A stretch of 39,882 bases of DNA from a virus, in the IMG/VR virus record IMGVR_UViG_3300048919_000040, positions 1 to 39,882 of that record; one strand, 5' to 3'. The translations under genes and the position numbers were made by a program. Numbering within the stretch: position 1 is the stretch's first letter; every line of letters starts with the position of its first letter. The notes beneath the pieces were generated by a model. It saw only the letters and a list, made by a program, of their open reading frames with translations, did no database searches and had not been told where the DNA came from. Shown piece by piece: positions 1,990-39,882 of this stretch.

Positions 1990-2203
1990 AGCTTTGTTAT
2001 TTTATAGGTAAAAGGAAAAACGGCGATGATGTTAAAGAACTTTTGCGCTTGCCGTTTTTCCGGCGTTCATTTAATCAATTTTTGGCTACTGCCGCCCCTG
2101 CCTTATTACCGGTCTCACGGGTGGATGAATGAATGAACTATGCAAATGTAAAAACTATTTTTTAATTGTGCAAATAAATTTACAAAAATTTTTAATTATT
2201 TTT

Positions 2204-2226
2204 AAAAAGGGCGGATTTACCGCCCT
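2204..2226 (-). terminator. Rho-independent terminator after the 109-aa ORF
   Basis: Stem AGGGCGG/CCGCCCT (2208-2214 / 2220-2226) with a 5-nt loop, followed on the minus strand by a T-run. Confidence 0.7.
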
Positions 2227-2231
2227 TTGGG

Positions 2232-2561
2232 CTACATTATTAAATTCATGTCGGCCGGTCTTACTAAGATTTTACCCGCTTCGTGCGACCTATCGAAAGT
2301 GTGTACTACTAAAACCACTTCGTAAAGTAGATTTTTTATTTTGATAAACTCGCCTTTGGCTGGCGGCGTTACGTAGCACGTGCTAGCTAGGTCTTTCTTA
2401 GTTCCCGTTTCCACTATGTGAAATTCACACACCGCGCGGTTATCTATTGTACTCGCTAGGTCGTCTAGTATTACGTCTAACCAATACGCGAAGTCTTCCG
2501 GGTTCTTTTGCGCTAGCATCTTTACAATGTTCTGCGCGTTTAAGTTTAATTTGTTTGCCAT
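2232..2561 (-). CDS. hypothetical protein (109 aa), cassette 2
   Basis: I moved the start to the internal ATG at 2561 (MANKLNL...), because the upstream 19 codons of the tracked ORF overlap the promoter-like repeat. A terminator follows the gene. Confidence 0.65.
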   Translation of the reverse strand: MANKLNLNAQNIVKMLAQKNPEDFAYWLDVILDDLASTIDNRAVCEFHIVETGTKKDLASTCYVTPPAKGEFIKIKNLLYEVVLVVHTFDRSHEAGKILVRPADMNLIM

Positions 2562-2600
2562 AATGTTAAAGATCGTTTTAATTGTTTTACGCTTTATATA

Positions 2601-2617
2601 ATGCAAAGTGCGTGCCA
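2601..2617 (-). promoter_or_regulatory. Sigma-54 type -24/-12 promoter-like element (TGGCACGCACTTTGCAT)
   Basis: Minus-strand reading matches TGGCACG-N4-TTGCW at every conserved position. It lies about 40 nt upstream of the ATG at 2561 and is part of the 42-nt repeat 2576-2617. Confidence 0.6.
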
Positions 2618-2643
2618 AAGTGGATGAACCATAAAACTAAATG

Positions 2644-2664
2644 AAAAACCCCGCTTGCGCGGGG
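2644..2664 (-). terminator. Rho-independent terminator after the 94-aa ORF
   Basis: Stem CCCCGC/GCGGGG (2649-2654 / 2659-2664) with a 4-nt loop. A T5 run follows on the minus strand (A-run 2644-2648). Confidence 0.7.
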
Positions 2665-2670
2665 GCTTGG

Positions 2671-2955
2671 TTAAACTTTACTAATCGCTTCTAGTATTTC
2701 GTCTTCATTTTTAAAACGGTTCCATTCGGCGAAAAATTTACCATCGGGCGGAATAATTAGCCTTGCGGTATATCCGCGTTTGCCGTCGGTTGGCGCAGGG
2801 CCTAGATCACGTATGAAGTAGATCGTTTGGCCTTCGACTTGCTCGTCGTATCTTACTTCAATTTCCCAGCCTAGCGGGGTTATCGCGACATCTGCGCCGT
2901 TTAACAACTCTTTGCACTTCTTAATGATTAGTGCGATAGTAACTACATTTTGCAT
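2671..2955 (-). CDS. hypothetical protein (94 aa), cassette 1
   Basis: ORF bracketed by the promoter-like repeat and a terminator. No recognisable motif. Confidence 0.7.
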   Translation of the reverse strand: MQNVVTIALIIKKCKELLNGADVAITPLGWEIEVRYDEQVEGQTIYFIRDLGPAPTDGKRGYTARLIIPPDGKFFAEWNRFKNEDEILEAISKV

Positions 2956-2989
2956 AATAAAAACTTTTAATTGTTTTACGCTTTATATA

Positions 2990-3006
2990 ATGCAAAGCGC
3001 GTGCCA
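2990..3006 (-). promoter_or_regulatory. Sigma-54 type -24/-12 promoter-like element (TGGCACGCGCTTTGCAT)
   Basis: Perfect match to TGGCACG-N4-TTGCW on the minus strand. It starts immediately after the fibre gene stop (3007) and lies about 38 nt upstream of the ATG at 2955. It is part of the 42-nt repeat 2965-3006. Confidence 0.6.
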
Positions 3007-5058
3007 TTAATGTTTAATATTATAATCCAATAGCGCATTTTTTATGGCAAGTCGTAAGAAGTTGCCCCACGATTCAGTGCCAAACTTTATGGCGTTAGCG
3101 TCATGAGGTTTAAAACCTTCGGCAAATCTAAAGTTTTGCGCAACTTCAAAAGTACCACTGTACATATTTATGTTATTCAAGTGCGCCGAAAGCTTGCCCG
3201 CTCCTAGTCCTAGGCTTGTTGTCATGGCCAGCCAGTTAGGGTCGGTGGGTAGCGTTTCGGTTTTAGTTCTAAACTTTCGCGTAGTTACTCGGCTGGTAGC
3301 ATATCCTATATCTATCATAAAATTGCTGGCTGCTTCTAACCAAGCCGTATTATAATTTTTGGGGTCTTCCTGTACGCTTCCATGAAAATTATGAAAATCT
3401 AAACCTATAAAGCCGCCTTGGATAGAATTAGTGAATGTGTAAATCGCTTGGCTTTCTACTTCGCTTAGTGCCGACGGCCCCGGATAAGTTGGGTCTGTGG
3501 GTACCCCGGCGGCGGCCCAACCTACCGGAAAATTTCTATTTAAATCCACCCCTCTATAATTTTTTCGCGCACCTGTTCCGCCCCCCGTATTCCACCCCCA
3601 AGGGTTAGCAGACGGTATAACTATTATTTTTACATTCCAACGTAGATACTCTAAAAATGGGTCGCTTTGCCAATTGGTTAACATCTGTTTTATTAATTCA
3701 TAGTTGCATAGCGCGCCCGTTTTTTCAAATCCGTGCATAGCTGTATTTATAAAAATAGTCGGCTTAAATACCGGATTACTTACGGTGGTGTCGTCGTTTC
3801 GTGTTATAGGGGGGTCGAATGTATACGCATACATGCTTAATGGCGTTGTTTCCGTCGGCACCTGATCCGTTAGTAGTGTTCGGGTGGCGTATCCCGGGTT
3901 AGCGGATACGAAAGCGTCCCAAAGAGCATAAAAATTACTTACGTTACCAAGCCCTACCGGCACACTCGTACCGCTTGCATTGCTGTAATCGGCTGTAGTT
4001 AGCGTATCGTAATACTTATCGAGTTCTATGTCGGCTATTATGGCATTGGTTCGCTTCATCGCTGTGGTGGCCGAAGCTTTAAACGTATATCTTAATACCT
4101 TATCATTTGACGCCGCGCTAGTGGTTTGAATAAGCCTGTACCCTGTGGCTATCAAATCCCAATTAATAGTTACTTTACCTAGCAAGGCGCCATTAGTTCG
4201 CCTAAATGTATATGTTTTAATACCCGTTGGTACTTCGGCGTTGGCTTGGTAGAAACTACCGCCCCACTCTACAGGCCCCAATTCAGTATTTACCACAGGT
4301 GTGGTAGTTGCGCCAAGTCTGAACCCCATATAATCACGTTTTTCAGTGCTATTAAATTGATATTGTTTACCTATACCATAAAATGATATGAACTCCGTAT
4401 CTAGTATATCATACCACTCCATGGATAAAAGCGCGTTGTTTATAGATTCGGCTAGTGATACGGTGCCGGGTTCAAAGAATTTATTATTTATAGGTACCGG
4501 CGCGGGTAGATATGTATAGTTAGATATATTAGTTAATAACCATTTGCCGGTACCTTTTCGCACACCGCCAAAAATTATGTGTGTGTCGGGTATGCCGGCC
4601 ACATTTGAAGAAGTGTACATAGCTACGGCCCCGGTAGTTCTATTCATAGCTAAGATTACAAATTCACCTGAAACCGTTGTTAAATCTAGTGTGGCCGCTG
4701 TTATTAAATATCTGTTTCGTTGACCCACTACTATGTTGGTAGTTCCGGTAAATGTTAGGGTGGCCGCCGTCTGATCTAACACTACGGTGGCGGGATTATT
4801 TAGTAAAAATCCTAACTTTTCGGCTTTGGTATATCCTGTTAATAACTCCACCCAATTGGCATTGCTTCCCGGCTCCACTGTGGGTGTAGTTATATCTACG
4901 GCCGCATAGTAAATTCGCCCTGTGGGTTTGTGTAATACTGTTCTATTCTGTGTATACGCGCCCGTTTCCCACATAACGGGGGATTGCGCGTCATTGTTAA
5001 AAATTAAGTCGGCAGCACTCGCGCCACTCATACCGTTTGTTATTTTAGTTAGTGCCAT
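3007..5058 (-). CDS. Tail fibre/spike protein with a C-terminal M14 zinc-carboxypeptidase-like domain
   Basis: 683 aa. The N-terminus has a CBM5/12-like motif (W-x4-Y...V...G..YYA...PG....W). The C-terminal part has HGFE (HxxE), NPWG, RGVDLNRNF and DFHNFHG, the hallmark M14 zinc and substrate motifs. Confidence 0.7.
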   Translation of the reverse strand: MALTKITNGMSGASAADLIFNNDAQSPVMWETGAYTQNRTVLHKPTGRIYYAAVDITTPTVEPGSNANWVELLTGYTKAEKLGFLLNNPATVVLDQTAATLTFTGTTNIVVGQRNRYLITAATLDLTTVSGEFVILAMNRTTGAVAMYTSSNVAGIPDTHIIFGGVRKGTGKWLLTNISNYTYLPAPVPINNKFFEPGTVSLAESINNALLSMEWYDILDTEFISFYGIGKQYQFNSTEKRDYMGFRLGATTTPVVNTELGPVEWGGSFYQANAEVPTGIKTYTFRRTNGALLGKVTINWDLIATGYRLIQTTSAASNDKVLRYTFKASATTAMKRTNAIIADIELDKYYDTLTTADYSNASGTSVPVGLGNVSNFYALWDAFVSANPGYATRTLLTDQVPTETTPLSMYAYTFDPPITRNDDTTVSNPVFKPTIFINTAMHGFEKTGALCNYELIKQMLTNWQSDPFLEYLRWNVKIIVIPSANPWGWNTGGGTGARKNYRGVDLNRNFPVGWAAAGVPTDPTYPGPSALSEVESQAIYTFTNSIQGGFIGLDFHNFHGSVQEDPKNYNTAWLEAASNFMIDIGYATSRVTTRKFRTKTETLPTDPNWLAMTTSLGLGAGKLSAHLNNINMYSGTFEVAQNFRFAEGFKPHDANAIKFGTESWGNFLRLAIKNALLDYNIKH

Positions 5059-9396: not shown

Positions 9397-9637
9397 AAGA
9401 TAAAGATAAATTATATTGCGGGCGTCTGTAACTAAAACTAAATTTTTCTATAAATACGTAATTACCTGTATAAATAGGTAAAATAGGTATTTAATATTAC
9501 TTTTACATATTACTTAGTATTTTAGTTATTTAGTTACAAAGTGGTAAAAAATAGCCTATTCTATGAGGTTTGGCGCGTGTAACCAAATGCGCAACTAAAA
9601 CCACTTTGTAACTAAATTTTGGTTACGTGTAACTAAA
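9397..9637. promoter_or_regulatory. AT-rich intergenic region A with a TTT(G/A)GTTAC iteron array
   Basis: Motif copies at 9428, 9529, 9579, 9608, 9618 and 9629, in both orientations, plus a degenerate copy at 9591. There is a 14-bp inverted repeat at 9531-9544 / 9601-9614. A 41-nt block at 9499-9539 is 35/41 identical to 32114-32154. Confidence 0.6.
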
Positions 9638-19784: not shown

Positions 19785-19836
19785 AAAGTAGAGATAAAAC
19801 AGGCTATATTTATCTTTATCTTAAATAATATTAACA
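19785..19836. promoter_or_regulatory. 52-bp divergent control region between the tail operon and the portal operon
   Basis: Contains the inverted repeat AGATAAA...TTTATCT and two copies, one per strand, of the 15-nt late motif TTTATCTYTAYYTT. Confidence 0.5.
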
Positions 19837-21777: not shown

Positions 21778-22275
21778 ATGAAAGACTATATATTAATGAT
21801 GCGTCACCTATGGGATTTACTTGTAAAAGTGGCGCAAACGTCGTTTGGTTGGTTATCCGCCGTGATTGTATTTATCTTTAACTATTTTTCGCCCGAAGGA
21901 TATAGTTTTTCGGTCGTGTTGGTCGCCGTTTTACTAGATGCTTTTTTCGGCATTTTGGTAGCGCTTAAATTCGATAAGTTTATTTTGTCAAAGCTAGGCC
22001 GCGTAACTCTTACTAAAATGGCGTCGTACGCTGCGCCGCTTATCATGCTTTACATGATCGAGAAATTAACGCACGATAGCGGTTTTATCGGTATTAAAGT
22101 GGCCGCCGGTTGGGCCGCCGCTTGTGAGCTGTGGAGTATGTCGGCGCACATCCTAATTTTATGGCCCGATAGTCCATTTTTTAAACTATTCCGTAAGCAG
22201 CTAAAAGCCGAGATAGAAGCGAAGATAGGCAACCCGCTAGATGATATATTTACGGACGAAGAAAAAAAAGATTAA
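21778..22275 (+). CDS. Holin-like membrane protein (Phage_holin_4_1-like)
   Basis: 165 aa with about 4 hydrophobic helices. LDAFFGILVALKFDKFILSKLGRVTLTK resembles the D..tG...A....S..G..K holin motif. The C-terminus is charged. Confidence 0.5.
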   Translation: MKDYILMMRHLWDLLVKVAQTSFGWLSAVIVFIFNYFSPEGYSFSVVLVAVLLDAFFGILVALKFDKFILSKLGRVTLTKMASYAAPLIMLYMIEKLTHDSGFIGIKVAAGWAAACELWSMSAHILILWPDSPFFKLFRKQLKAEIEAKIGNPLDDIFTDEEKKD

Positions 22276-22281
22276 AATTTA

Positions 22282-22312
22282 TTTGGATTATTAAAAAATA
22301 GTATTATCTTTG
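22282..22312 (+). promoter_or_regulatory. Bacteroidota-type housekeeping promoter (TTTG-N19-TATCTTTG)
   Basis: TTTG at 22282-22285 and TATCTTTG at 22305-22312 match the -33 TTTG / -7 TAnnTTTG consensus with a 19-nt spacer. Confidence 0.45.
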
Positions 22313-22355
22313 TAAAGTCTTAACCGGTGGTTAGTAACTATACATTCACTCTTTT

Positions 22356-22376
22356 AGCGCCTACGGGCGCTTTTTA
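22356..22376 (+). terminator. Rho-independent terminator
   Basis: Stem AGCGCC/GGCGCT (22356-22361 / 22366-22371) with loop TACG, followed by TTTTT. Confidence 0.75.
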
Positions 22377-22404: not shown

Positions 22405-22420
22405 TGGCACGACATTTGTA
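22405..22420 (+). promoter_or_regulatory. Sigma-54 type promoter-like element, near-consensus (TGGCACGACATTTGTA)
   Basis: The -24 half is perfect, and the -12 half is TTGT instead of TTGC. The downstream GTAAAACAATTAAAA and upstream GGTTCATCC..CCAC are shared with the minus-strand copy at 2576-2632. Confidence 0.45.
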
Positions 22421-22445: not shown

Positions 22446-22760
22446 ATGTATATTATGAAAACCGCAACAAAAGCAATCGTATTAACCGCCAAGGGCGAAG
22501 TAAACAAACATTTTAAAAATGCGCTAATGTGCGCAAGGTTCGACGAAGCGAATACCAAAATTTACCCGTGTAGCTGGATGAAGTCAGGCCGTAATTTTGC
22601 TTGCCGTGATAAAAGCGCGCTAATAACTAGCGTACTTAAAGCGCAAGGTTACAAGTTTGAAATAGGCAACGACGCACCAAAGGGCGGGCTAGAAGGTAAC
22701 TACATCAAAGTAAGTAAAACCGCGTTAGCATTTTTATTGCAGTTTAGAAAATGGAACTAA
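22446..22760 (+). CDS. hypothetical protein (104 aa; may start at 22455, MKTATK...)
   Basis: First ORF after the promoter-like element. No recognisable motif. Confidence 0.6.
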   Translation: MYIMKTATKAIVLTAKGEVNKHFKNALMCARFDEANTKIYPCSWMKSGRNFACRDKSALITSVLKAQGYKFEIGNDAPKGGLEGNYIKVSKTALAFLLQFRKWN

Positions 22761-22894
22761 AACGCCTATTTGCCTTAGAAGATGCTTTAATAGCGCAGTT
22801 GTTAGAAAGTTACGCCATTGGTGCGGTGCCGCGAAAAGCGGTTAAAGACGAATTAGCAACCGTTCAATTAAAAATAAAAAGCTTATGGAAATAG
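22751..22894 (+). CDS. hypothetical small protein (47 aa, not in the ORF track)
   Basis: I read it myself: ATG at 22751, MELKRLFALEDALIAQLLESYAIGAVPRKAVKDELATVQLKIKSLWK, stop at 22892-22894. It fills the gap between neighbours with overlaps at both ends. Confidence 0.4.
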   Translation: MELKRLFALEDALIAQLLESYAIGAVPRKAVKDELATVQLKIKSLWK

Positions 22895-23175
22895 CGACCT
22901 ATAAGTATCAGCGCAAAGAAGGGGTTTACCCCTTCACTGTGTTTGTTACCCACACAATGAAAGTAAAAATACTAGAAGATACCGGTAAGCGCTTGCGCAT
23001 AGAGTTCTTAGGCTACCACGCCGACGGACGAACACCGGGAACCGTTACCACCGTGGAGTATAAAAGCGTTAAGCGAATGGATGCGGCCAGCCGTTCCGGC
23101 AAGTCTGCAAACCTGCAAGACTATTTAGATACCTTAGACCCTGAATTAATTAGAAAACCCTATAAAGATGACTAG
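22885..23175 (+). CDS. hypothetical protein (96 aa)
   Basis: ORF in an operon-like tiling. No motif recognised. Confidence 0.6.
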   Translation: MEIATYKYQRKEGVYPFTVFVTHTMKVKILEDTGKRLRIEFLGYHADGRTPGTVTTVEYKSVKRMDAASRSGKSANLQDYLDTLDPELIRKPYKDD

Positions 23176-23734
23176 AAAAGAAGCCGACGCGCTAATATCG
23201 TATATCGAATTTTTAGCAGCATTAACCGAAGACTACGAACTAATGAACCGGCCGCCTATTTTATCGGCAACCTCAAACGACGGCGAAAATTGGAAGCCTT
23301 CAAATGTATTTCTAGGCGTAAAACCCAGCCCTATTATGGGTATGGACTTCGGAACTGAAAACCCTAGCGTAGCGGTGCAATCATGGCGCGACCAATTTAT
23401 CAGGTGGCACATAGAAGAAGCCGGCCCAATAGACCCGGAAGTATTCGCCAAGCTAAAAACCGCACATAAAAGACGCGGGCAAGACGTTACGCTAGGCGCG
23501 TTACTTAATATCGTAGCTAATGCGCCTAACTCTATGCTAGACTACTACCGAAAAGAAGATATTATAGCCTTTGGTAAAGTCGTTCGCGATTTGACTAGAT
23601 TAGAAATAGAATTTTCGGCAAGCCCTAAAGTGGAATATGTAGACGAAGGCGCGGGCAAAGAACATAAGGCCGTAGTGCTTTGGCCTAAGTTATCAGAAGA
23701 ATACGTATATTTACCAAAAGATTATAAACTATGA
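23168..23734 (+). CDS. hypothetical protein (188 aa)
   Basis: ORF overlapping both neighbours (8 nt and ATGA). No motif recognised. Confidence 0.65.
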   Translation: MTRKEADALISYIEFLAALTEDYELMNRPPILSATSNDGENWKPSNVFLGVKPSPIMGMDFGTENPSVAVQSWRDQFIRWHIEEAGPIDPEVFAKLKTAHKRRGQDVTLGALLNIVANAPNSMLDYYRKEDIIAFGKVVRDLTRLEIEFSASPKVEYVDEGAGKEHKAVVLWPKLSEEYVYLPKDYKL

Positions 23735-24015
23735 ATATCACAATAGAAGCCCCACAAGGCGCGGGCAAATCCACACAAACAAACCTTATCATAAACGCCA
23801 ATATGCCGGCTAACGTAGTGTACGCTAATGGCGACATAGATACGGCGCTAACCGACTTTTACGATAACCCGCCAGCCTTTGGCACAAACTTTGTAATAGT
23901 TGACGATATAAGAAGCGAAGCGCATTTAAAAGCCGCTAAGCGTAAAGTTAACGAATGGCGCCGCCGTAACGACGTCAATTTAAAAGCAATTTTTGAAATA
24001 CAAATAGGATTATGA
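23731..24015 (+). CDS. Mini P-loop protein (94 aa, thymidylate-kinase-like N-terminal motif)
   Basis: ITIEAPQGAGKSTQ resembles the Tmk/dNMP-kinase Walker A context (hEG..GaGKsTQ). FVIVDDI is Walker-B-like. The protein is far too short for a full kinase. Confidence 0.5.
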   Translation: MNITIEAPQGAGKSTQTNLIINANMPANVVYANGDIDTALTDFYDNPPAFGTNFVIVDDIRSEAHLKAAKRKVNEWRRRNDVNLKAIFEIQIGL

Positions 24016-24296
24016 AAACAGGAAAATTAAAAGGTGTTACCACCATAGAAGCCGCAGGTATAGTTATGCACTTAGGCGGCAAAACAATGCTATACCGAGA
24101 CGCCCCGCTATTGAATATTGCGCAGATCATAGACGTATGTAACGAAGCCGAAGCCAACGAAGCCGATAGCATACTATTCGATAAGGGTGCGCTATTTGAT
24201 CCGGCGGCCTACGAACTAGCGCGCGAAGCTGTTAAAGGTTTTGAAGAAAAATACCCGGACCAGCTTAAAGTAGTAATCTATAATATTGCGGAATGA
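24012..24296 (+). CDS. hypothetical protein (94 aa)
   Basis: ORF with ATGA overlaps on both sides. Confidence 0.6.
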   Translation: MKTGKLKGVTTIEAAGIVMHLGGKTMLYRDAPLLNIAQIIDVCNEAEANEADSILFDKGALFDPAAYELAREAVKGFEEKYPDQLKVVIYNIAE

Positions 24297-24541
24297 TGGG
24301 AAAACGAATTGAAGGTAACCCAGACTTAGCTTGCCCGGCACTACCACCAATACACTTGAAGCCGAAATTTAGTATCGGCCAATTTGTCTACCCTAGGGCT
24401 GACCCTGACCAATACCCGCGAATAATTACAGGACTCATAATTCGGCCGAACGAAATTATTAAATACTTGGCCTCTAATTACGATAACGAACGCGAATATG
24501 AAGCCTTTGAACTATCAGACGTTAAAACCTATGTACCATGA
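24293..24541 (+). CDS. hypothetical protein (82 aa)
   Basis: ORF with an ATGA overlap to the upstream gene. Confidence 0.6.
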   Translation: MMGKRIEGNPDLACPALPPIHLKPKFSIGQFVYPRADPDQYPRIITGLIIRPNEIIKYLASNYDNEREYEAFELSDVKTYVP

Positions 24542-24612: not shown

Positions 24613-24637
24613 AGCGCGCTGCTTTGGCGCGCTTTTT
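24613..24637 (+). terminator. Rho-independent terminator
   Basis: Stem AGCGCGC/GCGCGCT (24613-24619 / 24627-24633) with a 7-nt loop, followed by TTTT. Confidence 0.7.
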
Positions 24638-24664
24638 GCATCAACTAATATAAATACTTACATT

Positions 24665-28445: not shown

Positions 28446-29225
28446 TTATAGTATTGATTCTTCGCCCGCTTTGAACGTAGTTTTACCGCCCGGTTGTACT
28501 GCGTAGCTATCGCCCGTATCGGTGGTATAGGTTCCCGGCTTCATGTTCTTAGTTTCCTTATCCGCGTTAACGAAGGTAAGGCCGCCCTTTGTAGCGTCTT
28601 CGGCATCCGGGGTAAACGTTACTTCGTGTACGTTGCCGTCTTTATCCTTTACGATAAACGACCCGTCTGCGTTAGTGGTATCTACGTTAGGCGTATTCAA
28701 TTCGGTAAGTCTATCGGCCAATAGCTGGCGCTCGCTATCGAATAGCATAGTATTACCGTTTGCCGTAGCTTCCGCGTCCTGCTTAGTAATTTCGGCGATC
28801 GCGTCCGCTTCGCCCATAGCGTTTTCCGGTTCGTCCGGGTCGTACCCAAATTCTGCGCTGTATGCTGCGTAAATATCATGTAGCGCCGTGTATGTTTCAC
28901 GTGGAACATTTGCGCCCGCGGCTTCGGTTGCTGGCACGGTAGGCGCTGCGGCTTCCAGCTTTTCGCCGTACACGTCTTTGCCCTTATCGGCTTGCGCTAG
29001 TGCGTAATCGGCATACCATTGCTTTAGCTTATTGGCGCGATTGGTTAAGCACGACGTACACGATTCCGGTACCTCTCTTAGCCCAAATACGGCGTTATGC
29101 GCATTATAAATTCCCGATGTGCTGTATCGGTGTTTAGAGACGTCATTTAAAACAATCTCTACGCTTTGGATAATTGCCGGCGTAATGTGTGAATAGTCGG
29201 CGGCTTTGTTGTCTTGCTTTTTCAT
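28446..29225 (-). CDS. hypothetical protein (259 aa) with an acidic C-terminal tail
   Basis: ORF between the membrane protein gene and terS. No motif recognised. It ends ...GEESIL. Confidence 0.65.
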   Translation of the reverse strand: MKKQDNKAADYSHITPAIIQSVEIVLNDVSKHRYSTSGIYNAHNAVFGLREVPESCTSCLTNRANKLKQWYADYALAQADKGKDVYGEKLEAAAPTVPATEAAGANVPRETYTALHDIYAAYSAEFGYDPDEPENAMGEADAIAEITKQDAEATANGNTMLFDSERQLLADRLTELNTPNVDTTNADGSFIVKDKDGNVHEVTFTPDAEDATKGGLTFVNADKETKNMKPGTYTTDTGDSYAVQPGGKTTFKAGEESIL

Positions 29226-29491
29226 TTGGTAATAATGTATTTTGATTTAACATATAAGTAATTTAATAGGCCCGATATTAGCGCGATAACTAATAACAGG
29301 TAGAAGGCTTCGCCGTTTCGCGTCCAAGCAATTAGCGTGCCAAATATCAGGGTTAGCCAAAAGGCCAAACACCCGTAACAGTTAAACGGTTTTACCGGCA
29401 ACACTGCGCGGCCCGCCGTACCTAAATACGCTAACGCGTTGGAACCCAACACGTTAACGATTAATAGAATTATGATTTTATAGAAGTCCAT
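29222..29491 (-). CDS. Small membrane protein (89 aa, about 3 hydrophobic helices)
   Basis: Hydrophobic segments IIILLIVNVLGSNALAYL, CLAFWLTLIFGTLIAW and FYLLLVIALISGLLNYL. ATGA overlap with the downstream gene. Confidence 0.6.
   Translation of the reverse strand: MDFYKIIILLIVNVLGSNALAYLGTAGRAVLPVKPFNCYGCLAFWLTLIFGTLIAWTRNGEAFYLLLVIALISGLLNYLYVKSKYIITK
29327..29342 (-). promoter_or_regulatory. Sigma-54 consensus match inside a coding region (TGGCACGCTAATTGCT)
   Basis: The minus-strand reading matches TGGCACG-N4-TTGCW perfectly. It lies about 100 nt upstream of the ATG at 29225, which heads the 259-aa/terS/terL/lysis genes. It is not part of the 42-nt repeat. Confidence 0.3.
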
Positions 29492-29506: not shown

Positions 29507-30217
29507 TTATTTAGTATCGTCATTTAGCGATAGCAAATAGTCTTTGCGCGCTTTGAACGTTATTTGCACATCTTTTTTAATTGCGCCGATTACCTGCCAT
29601 ATTTTAGTAAACGAAATACCAAGTAGCGCCGCTAAGCGCTTATACGAAGTATCGGGCAAAAGGCCCAAATATATTTCAAATATGCACGTATCGAAGTCGC
29701 AGTAATTGGCGCGCACATATTCCAGCACTTCCGTATTTAACGTATCTACGACTTCTTCGTACAGCGCGTAATTAAAATCGCTGGCCAAAAGGCGATCTTT
29801 AAGGGTGAAATTTACCGGAATACCGCTACGACTTGCGCGGCTATCTTTATAAAACTTATCTCTATCTAATTCAGCGTCAAGACTTTGCAACATTTTAGCG
29901 GTAGAAATATCGTTTATCTGCGCCTTCATGGCGTTAGTGTAATACGCGCGATAAAAGTAATCGGCATAGCTGGCGATACGCGTACCCTTTAATAATATGG
30001 CGTCGTAAATAACTAGCGCGGTATCGGTAGCCACGTCGTCGTTAAACGTCCAGCCCTTACTTTTAAATGTAGTTTTCAATTCGATGAAGTGCGCGCCATA
30101 CCATGACATGAAATTACGCGCCCGGCGTTCATTCTGAATAGTTGGCACTTCGTGGCCCGTAAGCTTCTTATATTTTTTGCCGGCATTCTTACCGCCGCTA
30201 TTTCCATATTTCGCCAT
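29507..30217 (-). CDS. Sigma-70-family-like transcription regulator (putative late-gene factor)
   Basis: 236 aa. The C-terminal LPDTSYKRLAALLGISFTKIWQVIGAIKKDV resembles a sigma region-4 HTH, and DVATDTALVIYDAILLKG is region-2-like. The position (after SNF2, before terminase) matches sigma/RinA-like regulators in related modules. Confidence 0.4.
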   Translation of the reverse strand: MAKYGNSGGKNAGKKYKKLTGHEVPTIQNERRARNFMSWYGAHFIELKTTFKSKGWTFNDDVATDTALVIYDAILLKGTRIASYADYFYRAYYTNAMKAQINDISTAKMLQSLDAELDRDKFYKDSRASRSGIPVNFTLKDRLLASDFNYALYEEVVDTLNTEVLEYVRANYCDFDTCIFEIYLGLLPDTSYKRLAALLGISFTKIWQVIGAIKKDVQITFKARKDYLLSLNDDTK

Positions 30218-31960: not shown

Positions 31961-32253
31961 AGTTATTTACGTTTAGTTACAAATTTGGTTACACCTGTAA
32001 GTTATTAAGCTACATAGTGTTACGGTGTTTTGCCGTATCGTGTAACTTTGTAACCAAATTTTTTGTATACATTATTATATATAATATAAATTGTTTAAAT
32101 TGAATATTTATATACTTTTACTAATTACTATATATTTTAGTTATTTGGTTACAATATTCATAGAACATAGATAGGCAAAGGATTTGCGGCGTAACCAAAT
32201 TTGTAACCAAAATATAAATGTAACCAAAATTTAGTTACACCTATGTAACCAAA
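31961..32253. promoter_or_regulatory. AT-rich intergenic region B with a dense TTT(G/A)GTTAC iteron array (candidate origin or regulatory hub)
   Basis: Forward copies at 31972, 31984, 32144 and 32230. Reverse copies (GTAACCAAA) at 32050, 32191, 32203, 32220 and 32245, plus core-only copies. They flank an extremely AT-rich core at about 32058-32140. Confidence 0.6.
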
Positions 32254-35376: not shown

Positions 35377-35428
35377 GATGTAAATTTTAATGAATGAACC
35401 ACAAAGATAGGAATTAAAATTTAATTTC

Positions 35429-39371: not shown

Positions 39372-39759
39372 TTGTCTTGCCGTTTGATCTTAATTGTACT
39401 ATTTGCCCTACCCATATACCTAGGTTAATGGCGTCTTGTTTGGTCGGTAGCGCGATGTCTAACATATACGTAAAGTCTTCGCCATTCATTGCGCTAGAAG
39501 TATACACTTTGCCCCCGTCGGTAGCCTTTGGCTGGCGATCTACACCACCAATAAAATATTTTAGTCCTAGCTTTTCTAGGTCTTCCGCTGCCTTATCTAT
39601 AATAGCGTGTATCATATCTGCGCGGCGGCTTTCGTCTATTTGCTGCGGGCTTGCTGCCAACGCTTCAATAGCTGGTTTTGTTTTACCTATGGCCTGTTTA
39701 CTTGGCCATACTTTTTTTGGTGTACCCTTGCGCGGGTCGTCCGGTTTTTTATCGTACAT
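39355..39759 (-). CDS. hypothetical protein (134 aa), tandem paralog 1
   Basis: In the circular map the ORF starts 2 nt after the exonuclease stop (TAAttATG). YFIGGVDRQPKATDGGKVYTSSAMNGEDFTYMLDIAL aligns with the 116-aa neighbour. Confidence 0.6.
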   Translation of the reverse strand: MYDKKPDDPRKGTPKKVWPSKQAIGKTKPAIEALAASPQQIDESRRADMIHAIIDKAAEDLEKLGLKYFIGGVDRQPKATDGGKVYTSSAMNGEDFTYMLDIALPTKQDAINLGIWVGQIVQLRSNGKTNEPQG

Positions 39760-39882
39760 AATTATAAAATGTCTTCGTCTTCTTCGCTGTAATCCTGTAC
39801 CTCATCATATCCCGATGAACCTACACTAATCGCGGGGCGGTCGTCGTCTTCGCTGGCTATTGCCGGTTTACCGTCGCTTTTA
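39756..39882. repeat. Terminal direct overlap, copy 2. It duplicates the 3' end of the exonuclease gene and the start codon region of the 134-aa gene.
   Basis: Identical to 1-127. Positions 39762-39882 repeat the C-terminal coding part of CDS 7..1263. Confidence 0.95.

Follow-up and report, generated by a model that had tools for sequence, protein, structure and literature searches.

What would read perfect -24/-12 promoter sequences in a phage genome that encodes no recognisable activator for them? The question is raised by a 39,882-nucleotide (nt) stretch of viral DNA, IMG/VR record IMGVR_UViG_3300048919_000040 (the window, below, means this whole stretch), in which a preliminary description made from the sequence alone had reported two perfect matches to the sigma-54 (RpoN) promoter consensus inside a 42-nt repeat. 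The sigma-54 holoenzyme forms a closed complex that is opened only by an AAA+ enhancer-binding ATPase. We refer to the candidate sites in the window as P1 (3006), P2 (2617), P3 (22405), P4 (24625) and P5 (29342). P1, P2, P3 and possibly P5 are best explained as -24/-12 promoters that would be read by host RNA polymerase carrying sigma-54, and we put at roughly 0.6 the probability that the host sigma-54 holoenzyme drives moron-like gene cassettes from such sites in dependence on a host activator.

Exact -24/-12 motifs face small genes

The pattern that we searched for, TGGCACG-N4-TTGCW (TGGCACGNNNNTTGCW), has 12 specified positions and the GG-N10-GC spacing. The two sites first described read TGGCACGCACTTTGCAT (minus strand, 2617->2601) and TGGCACGCGCTTTGCAT (minus strand, 3006->2990), as had been stated, and they are joined by one more exact match and by a site that matches at 11 of 12 positions (22405-22420). 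Altogether the window contains three exact matches, all on the minus strand (2617->2602, 3006->2991 and 29342->29327); 100 dinucleotide-preserving shuffles gave none (mean 0.00, maximum 0), which bears out the earlier arithmetic that the motif is improbable by chance. With one or two mismatches allowed, 13 matches are observed versus 4.15 ± 1.88 expected, and two of the mismatch sites are intergenic and face open reading frames (ORFs): 22405-22420 on the plus strand (TGGCACGACATTTGTA) and 24625-24640 on the plus strand (TGGCGCGCTTTTTGCA). The genome holds ten TGGCACG heptamers; the three intergenic ones are all followed by N4-TTG(C/T)A.

P1 (TGGCACG-CGCT-TTGCA; 2991-3006, minus strand) is exact and adjoins the stop codon of the tail gene at 3007-5058 with no base between them; its predicted transcription start site is near 2980. 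P2 (TGGCACG-CACT-TTGCA; 2602-2617, minus strand), likewise exact, has its predicted start site near 2591. P3 (TGGCACG-ACAT-TTGTA; 22405-22420, plus strand) is intergenic, matches at 11 of 12 positions, with a T at the -12 C position, and faces the ORF at 22446-22760. All three are oriented toward ORFs that begin 25-40 nt downstream; the distance from motif end to ATG is 35 nt for P1 (ATG at 2955) and 40 nt for P2 (ATG at 2561), in keeping with the roughly 40 nt reported before. P2 and P3 lie directly after intrinsic terminators and P1 directly after a stop codon, and the stretch between the -12 element and the predicted start site is AT-rich.

The 42-nt repeat is present as described, with 41 of 42 positions identical (98%). 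Copy 1 (2965-3006, minus strand) comprises P1 and its leader and ends in TAAAACAATTAAAA; copy 2 (2576-2617, minus strand) comprises P2 and its leader. We infer a recent duplication of a promoter-plus-leader cassette, and because P1 and P2 are copies of one another they count as a single event. A structured RNA leader or riboswitch was considered for the repeat and is ruled out by its fold scores and by Rfam: the predicted folds are no better than those of shuffled sequences (z = -0.7 for copy 1, +1.0 for copy 2 and -1.1 for a further stretch tested), and Rfam gave no hit at the gathering threshold anywhere in the window.

P5 (TGGCACG-CTAA-TTGCT; 29327-29342, minus strand), the third exact match, lies inside the ORF at 29222-29491 and 101 nt upstream of the ORF at 28446-29225. 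Like a weaker intragenic site at 23880-23895 (plus strand), it encodes Phe-Gly-Thr (TTT GGC ACN; TTTGGCAC...), its coding context reading IFGTLIAW. Both sites are conserved in the related phage locus L018 with synonymous or conservative changes, the sole change in the P5 ortholog (L018:14425, TGGCACG-TTAA-TTGCT) being synonymous and in the spacer; P5 is absent from another relative, L020. This conservation can be explained by protein sequence alone. P5 may be an internal promoter for 28446-29225 and the terminase block, or a by-product of the coding sequence.

P4 (TGGCGCG-CTTT-TTGCA; 24625-24640, plus strand), an 11/12 match, was rejected as a promoter. Because its motif consists of the 3' arm and T-run of a terminator hairpin (24613-24633), and because the spacing in its L020 counterpart is 2 nt shorter, we assign it to the terminators. 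The hairpin, AGCGCGC-TGCTTTG-GCGCGCT plus T-run (24613-24640, plus strand), mimics the -24/-12 motif by composition, a caution for pattern scans in general.

Conservation is confined to the -24 and -12 elements

Close relatives of the window are L001 (capsid protein 83% identical), L018 (portal protein 90%), L019 (77%) and L020/L021 (74%); 13 more distant relatives (L002, L004-L006 and L009-L017) have a capsid protein about 70% or a portal protein 59-67% identical. A P1 ortholog occurs in L001 (15013-15028, TGGCACG-CGCT-TTGCT). Orthologs of P3 occur in L018 (7428, TGGCACG-ACAT-TTGCA, 12/12), L019 (5639, CGGCACG-AAAT-TTGTA) and L020 (12542, TGGCACG-CAAA-TTGCA, 12/12), the last in unrelated flanks.

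When the seven P1, P2 and P3 regions from the window, L001, L018, L019 and L020 are aligned, GGCACG and TTG are the only invariant promoter columns. The spacing between them is fixed in all seven sequences, and the N4 spacer, the upstream flank and the leader are all variable. Sigma-54 reads just these conserved positions, and the pattern is the footprint that its recognition would be expected to leave. The preliminary description had looked to related phages for conservation of the GG and GC dinucleotides; GGCACG, TTG and their spacing held throughout, and the C of the -12 GC did not, being replaced by T in two of the seven (window P3 and L019).

A sigma-A promoter occupies the P3 position in distant relatives

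Promoters of the Bacteroidota housekeeping type were sought as TTTG-N17-23-TAnnTTTG, that is, a -33 TTTG and a -7 box TAnnTTTG recognised by sigma-A. P1, P2 and P3 read GCGCTTTG, GCACTTTG and GACATTTG, with no TA and no -33 TTTG at the right distance. The same scan detects canonical sigma-A promoters elsewhere in the window, at 2150, 22305 and 35409; since these stand beside the predicted -24/-12 sites, the phage would use at least two promoter classes.

Intergenic promoters throughout the phage family share an order of parts: a terminator, a -7 box (TAnnTTTG or a close variant), 1-12 nt, GGTTCATTCATTCA and a leader. In L012, directly after the ortholog of gene 21778-22275, the sequence reads TATATTTG...GGTTCATTCATTCA, which is a canonical sigma-A -7 box in this arrangement. 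L011 (TTACCTTTG) and L013/L014 (TAGTTTTG) show the same sigma-A architecture at the corresponding junction after the portal/DUF6712 genes, the gene immediately upstream of the junction not scoring as an ortholog of 21778-22275 in these three. At the P3 junction of the window's clade, GGTTCATCCA is kept, the -7 box is without its G or gone, and the -24/-12 motif lies 0-5 nt downstream. Because the motif takes the place of a sigma-A promoter ahead of the same gene block, it is most simply another promoter, and one promoter class would have replaced another at this position.

A further element, ATGGTTCATCCA, of the form (A/G)TGGTTCATCCA(C/T) and part of an imperfect dyad GTGG-N5-CCAC, lies 3 nt upstream of P2 (2621-2632, minus strand) and 5 nt upstream of P3 (22388-22399, plus strand). 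Further copies are found at 2130-2141 and 35391-35402 (both minus strand), L020:12529-12541 and L021:5943-5955, the element being inverted in L020 and L021. Family-wide it follows the -7 box of sigma-A promoters, overlapping the start region and often extended to GGTTCATTCATTCA. We take it for a probable operator or promoter-proximal element within the phage's own circuitry rather than for an enhancer-like site.

An early, canonical sigma-A promoter, TTTG-N20-TACATTTG, has its -7 box at 2143-2150 (minus strand), upstream of the ORF at 1795-1989, and is conserved in L002, L004 and L021. The first early ORF (64 amino acids, aa) is preceded by a leader of about 150 nt (1990-2142, minus strand) that contains a conserved stretch, cggcaagcgcaaa..tctttaac, with a hairpin and a T-run; relatives share this leader (L002:15210-15317 and L021:6045-6165), which may act as a regulatory RNA or attenuate transcription. 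Just upstream of P3, at 22282-22376 (plus strand), a perfect sigma-A promoter, TTTG-N19-TATCTTTG, is followed about 45 nt on by a strong terminator (22357-22376). This stretch has a fold z-score of -1.9 and no Rfam hit, and could be a short non-coding RNA or an attenuator.

The sites head short units of small genes

P1 and P2 form promoter-ORF-terminator cassettes between the tail genes and the early region, a classical position for morons. The cargo of P1 is a 94-aa ORF (2671-2955, minus strand), and the cassette is closed by an intrinsic terminator hairpin (2649-2664, minus strand) followed by a T-run. P2 carries a 109-aa ORF (2232-2561, minus strand) and is closed by a terminator-like hairpin, GGGCGG-TAAAT-CCGCCC plus T-run (2204-2225, minus strand), read directly from the sequence. 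Neither cargo ORF has a hit in Pfam, PHROG, PADLOC or NCBIfam, or a homolog in any of the loci retrieved. In L001 the P1 ortholog stands behind a different tail gene, encoding a GDSL lipase, and ahead of a different cargo; the cassettes are absent from L021, L002, L004 and L006. P3 follows a terminator and heads eight small ORFs (22446-24541) downstream of the portal module, the first of which (22446-22760, plus strand) encodes 104 aa and has a homolog in L018 (82% identity). Several small genes, such as 24012-24296, are restricted to the motif-bearing clade.

The last tail gene, behind which P1 lies, is itself swapped among relatives: its product carries an M14 peptidase domain in the window (3007-5058, minus strand), a GDSL lipase in L001 (13115-15010) and L021 (4442-5908), and CotH in L004 (13108-15447). 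In two Bacteroides nordii prophages (L007 and L008), the junction between phage and host follows directly after the last tail gene.

The presumed host lineage uses sigma-54-type promoters

The window represents a single 39,755-bp genome plus a 127-bp terminal overlap, an identical direct repeat at 1-127 and 39756-39882 that stems either from the overlap of a circular assembly or from short terminal redundancy; the G+C content of the window is 43.8%. Protein-domain annotation identifies a tailed phage. Replication-type genes encode a family A DNA polymerase, a VapE-type primase-helicase and an SNF2 helicase, accompanied by a DUF2800/PD-(D/E)XK nuclease and an Enc34-type single-strand-binding protein; packaging and head genes encode small and large terminase subunits, portal, protease and capsid protein; and tail and lysis genes encode a tape-measure protein, an amidase and the tail protein with the M14 peptidase domain. 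Phage RNA polymerase, sigma factor, integrase and enhancer-binding protein are all missing from the window's domain annotations.

A near-identity DNA search of the phage collection returned no close relative of the window. IMG/VR contains no relative of the tail protein at 3007-5058 and no match to the promoter-plus-leader pattern, and genome_contigs gave no match for the capsid protein. In metagenome assemblies there are hundreds of homologs of the capsid and portal proteins, many of them on contigs 36-39 kb long, and further homologs lie in prophages on contigs of B. nordii, B. stercorirosoris and B. fragilis, with one on an Alistipes contig. Because these homologs include Bacteroides prophages, we place the host, by its phage's prophage relatives only, in the Bacteroidales, most likely in Bacteroides or a close genus.

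Chaperone genes across the Bacteroidota have been predicted to be under sigma-54 control, and groES and grpE of B. thetaiotaomicron are reported to be sigma-54-dependent (PMC12316311). At groES loci of Bacteroidaceae and other Bacteroidales we find TGGCACA-CTTT-TGGCA (L143-L145) or TGGCACA-CTAT-TGGTA (L146-L148) about 100 nt before the ATG (L143-L148: 2878-2893 / 2915-2930), with GG-N10-GC/GT spacing and C/T variation at -12 like that of the phage sites. On the strength of these motifs and of the published dependence, the Bacteroidales lineage uses sigma-54-type promoters and tolerates C or T at -12. The preliminary description had named a host lineage lacking rpoN as a finding that would refute the sigma-54 reading; the presumed host, placed through prophage relatives, would belong to a lineage in which promoters of this type exist.

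The phage encodes no recognised activator

None of the window's ORFs has a Sigma54_activat, sigma-54 or sigma-70 Pfam domain, and neither a GAFTGA loop nor an RpoN box occurs in its six frames, in agreement with the earlier remark that no activator gene could be recognised. ATTTGTCAG, a candidate element upstream of groES in the host lineage, shows no enrichment around the phage promoters.

One protein had looked sigma-like by eye. The 236-aa ORF at 29507-30217 (minus strand) is all-helical, has a C-terminal helix-turn-helix-like segment (SYKRLAALLGISFTKIWQVIGAIKKD) and is conserved in all parts of the phage family. Pfam, PHROG, NCBIfam and PDB sequences gave no hit for it, an hhalign comparison with an ECF sigma factor aligned 17 columns only, and the single-sequence AlphaFold model is unusable (pLDDT 46). 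Because the protein is also present in relatives without the motif, it is ruled out as the specificity determinant; it is a candidate transcription regulator, unlinked to the sigma-54-type sites.

In the favoured reading, each promoter would head a short unit of small genes, namely the terminator-closed cassettes of P1 and P2 and the block after the portal module for P3, and the closed complex at these sites would be opened by an AAA+ enhancer-binding ATPase of the host. With no ATPase of this kind encoded by the phage, a host activator should be needed for firing, and this dependence would tie the cassettes to a host signal rather than to the phage's sigma-A-driven programme. We favour a host enhancer-binding protein that would act without a nearby site or through a site not recognised here. 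More speculatively, this could be the activator of the Bacteroidota sigma-54-type chaperone promoters, in which case the cassettes would fire under proteotoxic stress such as infection.

The motif recurs in other viral contigs

A scan of IMG/VR for TGGCACGNNNNTTGCATWAW found at least 120 loci (L023-L142). The 120 loci listed (1.01 Mb) contain 180 perfect core sites, some 60 beyond the seeding ones where simple arithmetic predicts about 0.2 extra; some of these contigs are near-duplicates of one another, which makes the independent count lower. Among the loci listed, 30 carry at least two sites, and the distance to the next ORF peaks at 40-70 nt. The largest array, in L134 (1-14231), numbers ten perfect sites over 14 kb; they share one strand, and behind six of them an ORF of at least 40 aa begins within 36-73 nt. 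Other multi-site contigs among those listed are L076, L040, L098, L068 and L046. The leaders are A-rich, contain 'caattaaaat' and have no Shine-Dalgarno sequence, and they resemble the window's leader. These fragments encode no protein with a GAFTGA loop or an RpoN box, and neither a match in the phage collection nor a useful Pfam domain was obtained for L134 and L040.

The motif also appears in other arrangements. In L096 (2069-5702) it fills the spacer of TTGACA-N17-TATAAT promoters with Shine-Dalgarno leaders, and in L024 (12282-12706), L058 (3457-3620) and L101 (6745-7777) it forms inverted pairs, TGGCACG..TTGCA / TGCAA..CGTGCCA, like dyad operators or iterons. A separate search of metagenome and viral sequences, anchored on GGTTCATYCA-N0-8-YGGCACG, was set aside: four of the 239 matches listed have TTG at N4, about the 1-in-64 chance rate, and we take them as chance hits.

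The scan suggests, as a lead and not as a result, that phages use sigma-54-type promoters more broadly than has been described and that the window is a single case of this. That such promoters are a widespread and unrecognised class in Bacteroidota phages, possibly in phages of other hosts too, is a tentative idea that we hold to be possible and still doubtful. In the array contigs they would be a main promoter class for blocks of small, early-looking genes, which are without annotation. Because no canonical enhancer-binding ATPase is seen in these fragments, such phages would need a new way to open closed complexes: a non-canonical phage activator, a captured host stress (chaperone-regulon) activator, or a Bacteroidota sigma-54 that could work independently of an activator.

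Weighing the alternatives

The sigma-54 reading put forward in the preliminary description draws its strength from sites that are intergenic and oriented toward genes, two of the three behind terminators, from a footprint confined to -24 and -12, and from the sigma-A promoter that holds the homologous position in distant relatives; the dependence on RpoN itself we infer. Several observations pull the other way. The phage has no cognate activator of its own, and no enhancer-like upstream site common to P1, P2 and P3 was found, the DNA upstream of P1 being coding sequence. The sole upstream element that P2 and P3 share, ATGGTTCATCCA, sits at -30 to -43, too close for a classical enhancer, and it also accompanies sigma-A promoters. 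Two of the seven aligned promoters have T for the -12 C. No site of at least 11/12 lies at a comparable position in the 13 distant relatives, which confines the motif to a small subclade. The Bacteroides -7 box has as its core the same TTTG that occurs in TTTGCA, which leaves room for a sigma-A-related reading, and the motif's inverted pairs and its place in a sigma-70 promoter spacer in unrelated viral contigs show that it is not always a -24/-12 promoter.

The promoters might instead be read by something other than host sigma-54, either by sigma-A, with TTTG as -7 box and a clade-specific phage activator at TGGCACG or ATGGTTCATCCA, or by a phage specificity factor that mimics -24/-12. Of the 10 tabulated sites of the window's clade, 8 contain TTTG, as does the -7 box (TAnnTTTG), and P2 retains TAGTTTTA, one mismatch from the L014 -7 box TAGTTTTG; L020, on the other side, has AATTGCA and no TTTG, and P1, P2 and P3 have neither the TA of the -7 box nor a correctly spaced -33 TTTG. 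A phage activator could be found among the small genes that only the motif-bearing clade has (24012-24296, for example), and the dyad-like ATGGTTCATCCA is located where a class II-type activator would bind. P1 is without ATGGTTCATCCA, however, the distance from element to motif varies (0, 3 or 5 nt), and the element is inverted in L020. TGGCACG, the other proposed activator site, would fall in the sigma-A spacer (-22 to -16), where we know of no activator contact. The lack of an enhancer-binding protein and of an upstream activator site favours this alternative; the lack of a sigma-like domain in any ORF speaks against a phage specificity factor, and three window sites and three sites in relatives match the universal sigma-54 consensus at 12 of 12 positions, which makes a chance mimic improbable. 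We consider this alternative unlikely.

Nor need every motif be a promoter. Motifs could be protein-binding sites, whether operators of a phage regulator or places where silent sigma-54 closed complexes block or insulate read-through from upstream genes. In E. coli, sigma-54 is established to form closed complexes that are stable and inactive and to bind widely within genes, and this alternative would accommodate the inverted pairs of L024, L058 and L101, the motif in the TTGACA-N17-TATAAT spacer of L096, and the location of P5 and the 23880 site inside genes. The intergenic sites of the window, by contrast, are single and directional and stand a promoter's distance ahead of start codons; a roadblock would be redundant at P2 and P3, which terminators already precede; and at P3 the motif replaces a sigma-A promoter, the downstream genes being otherwise promoterless. 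A role limited to binding thus seems distinctly improbable to us. As for a fortuitous match that a 42-nt duplication copied and that has no regulatory meaning, the near-identity of P1 and P2 (41/42) is what it would predict. P3 and P5 are independent matches, though, four other phages have orthologous sites in which GGCACG and TTG persist amid diverged surroundings, and 100 shuffles gave no match; we give chance very little credence.

Relation to known promoter systems

By sequence and by comparison among relatives, the predicted promoters of the window belong to the known sigma-54 kind. They share with bacterial sigma-54 promoters such as glnAp2, nifH and pspA the signature itself, the GG-N10-GC spacing, conservation confined to -24/-12 and an AT-rich region from -12 to the start site. 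They differ in lying in a phage genome ahead of tiny genes without family hits, in having no cognate activator gene nearby and no enhancer detected 70-150 bp upstream, and in the T that replaces the -12 C in some orthologs. With the chaperone promoters of the Bacteroidota (groES/grpE, PMC12316311; L143-L148) they have in common the presumed host lineage, the -24 TGGCAC, GG-N10-G(C/T) and the C/T variation at -12. The groES sites, TGGCACA-N4-TGGCA/TGGTA, match at 9-10 of 12 positions, so that the phage sites are closer to the universal consensus; groES leaders are about 100 nt long as against 15-30 nt in the phage, and the host element ATTTGTCAG is not a feature of the phage promoters.

A sigma-54-like promoter has been reported in the Pseudomonas aeruginosa phage YuA (Ceyssens et al. 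2008, as cited in 10.1101/2023.10.13.562163) and was re-detected by ONT-cappable-seq (10.1101/2023.10.13.562163). The earlier remark that RpoN-dependent phage genes are rarely described is therefore roughly right and not absolute. As far as that later account goes, YuA resembles the window's phage in having a host sigma-54-type promoter alongside sigma-70-type promoters and no recognised activator; it differs in its Pseudomonadota host and in the single site reported, compared with three or four sites with comparative support in a presumed Bacteroidales phage. Our literature search found no report of sigma-54 promoters in Bacteroidota phages.

As promoter-ORF-terminator units whose cargo varies among close relatives and that are missing from others, the P1 and P2 cassettes resemble the morons of lambda (bor/lom) and HK97. 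Classical morons have housekeeping-sigma promoters, whereas those of P1 and P2 would be of the enhancer-dependent class. The usual analogy drawn for sigma-54 is late transcription in phage T4, with its gp55, gp33 and gp45 sliding clamp, and it is alike in being a phage promoter class that needs an energy-dependent or enhancer-like activation step. T4 has a sigma-like factor of its own and a simple motif, TATAAATA; neither is present in the window.

Other repeat regions of the genome

Two homologous AT-rich intergenic regions, at 9397-9632 and 31961-32240 (minus strand), are packed with TTGGTTAC / GTAACCAAA / GTAACTAAA repeats, one upstream of the head genes and the other downstream of the primase gene. 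ATCTTTATCTTA, with which the region at 9397-9632 ends, also stands ahead of the portal gene (19808-19822). These regions could be late-promoter control regions or origin iterons.

Implications for phages of the Bacteroidota

Sigma-54 promoters are silent until an ATP-driven activator acts on them, and accessory genes placed behind them would hand their control to a host signalling pathway. If the activator were that of the chaperone regulon, the cassettes would be switched on by proteotoxic stress, including that of the phage's own infection. Should the arrays in other viral contigs reflect a larger phenomenon, they could show in what way phages activate the enhancer-binding step or do without it. 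If the sigma-54 reading is true, it would add a second, orthogonal promoter class to the biology of Bacteroides phages and to the Bacteroides genetic toolkit.

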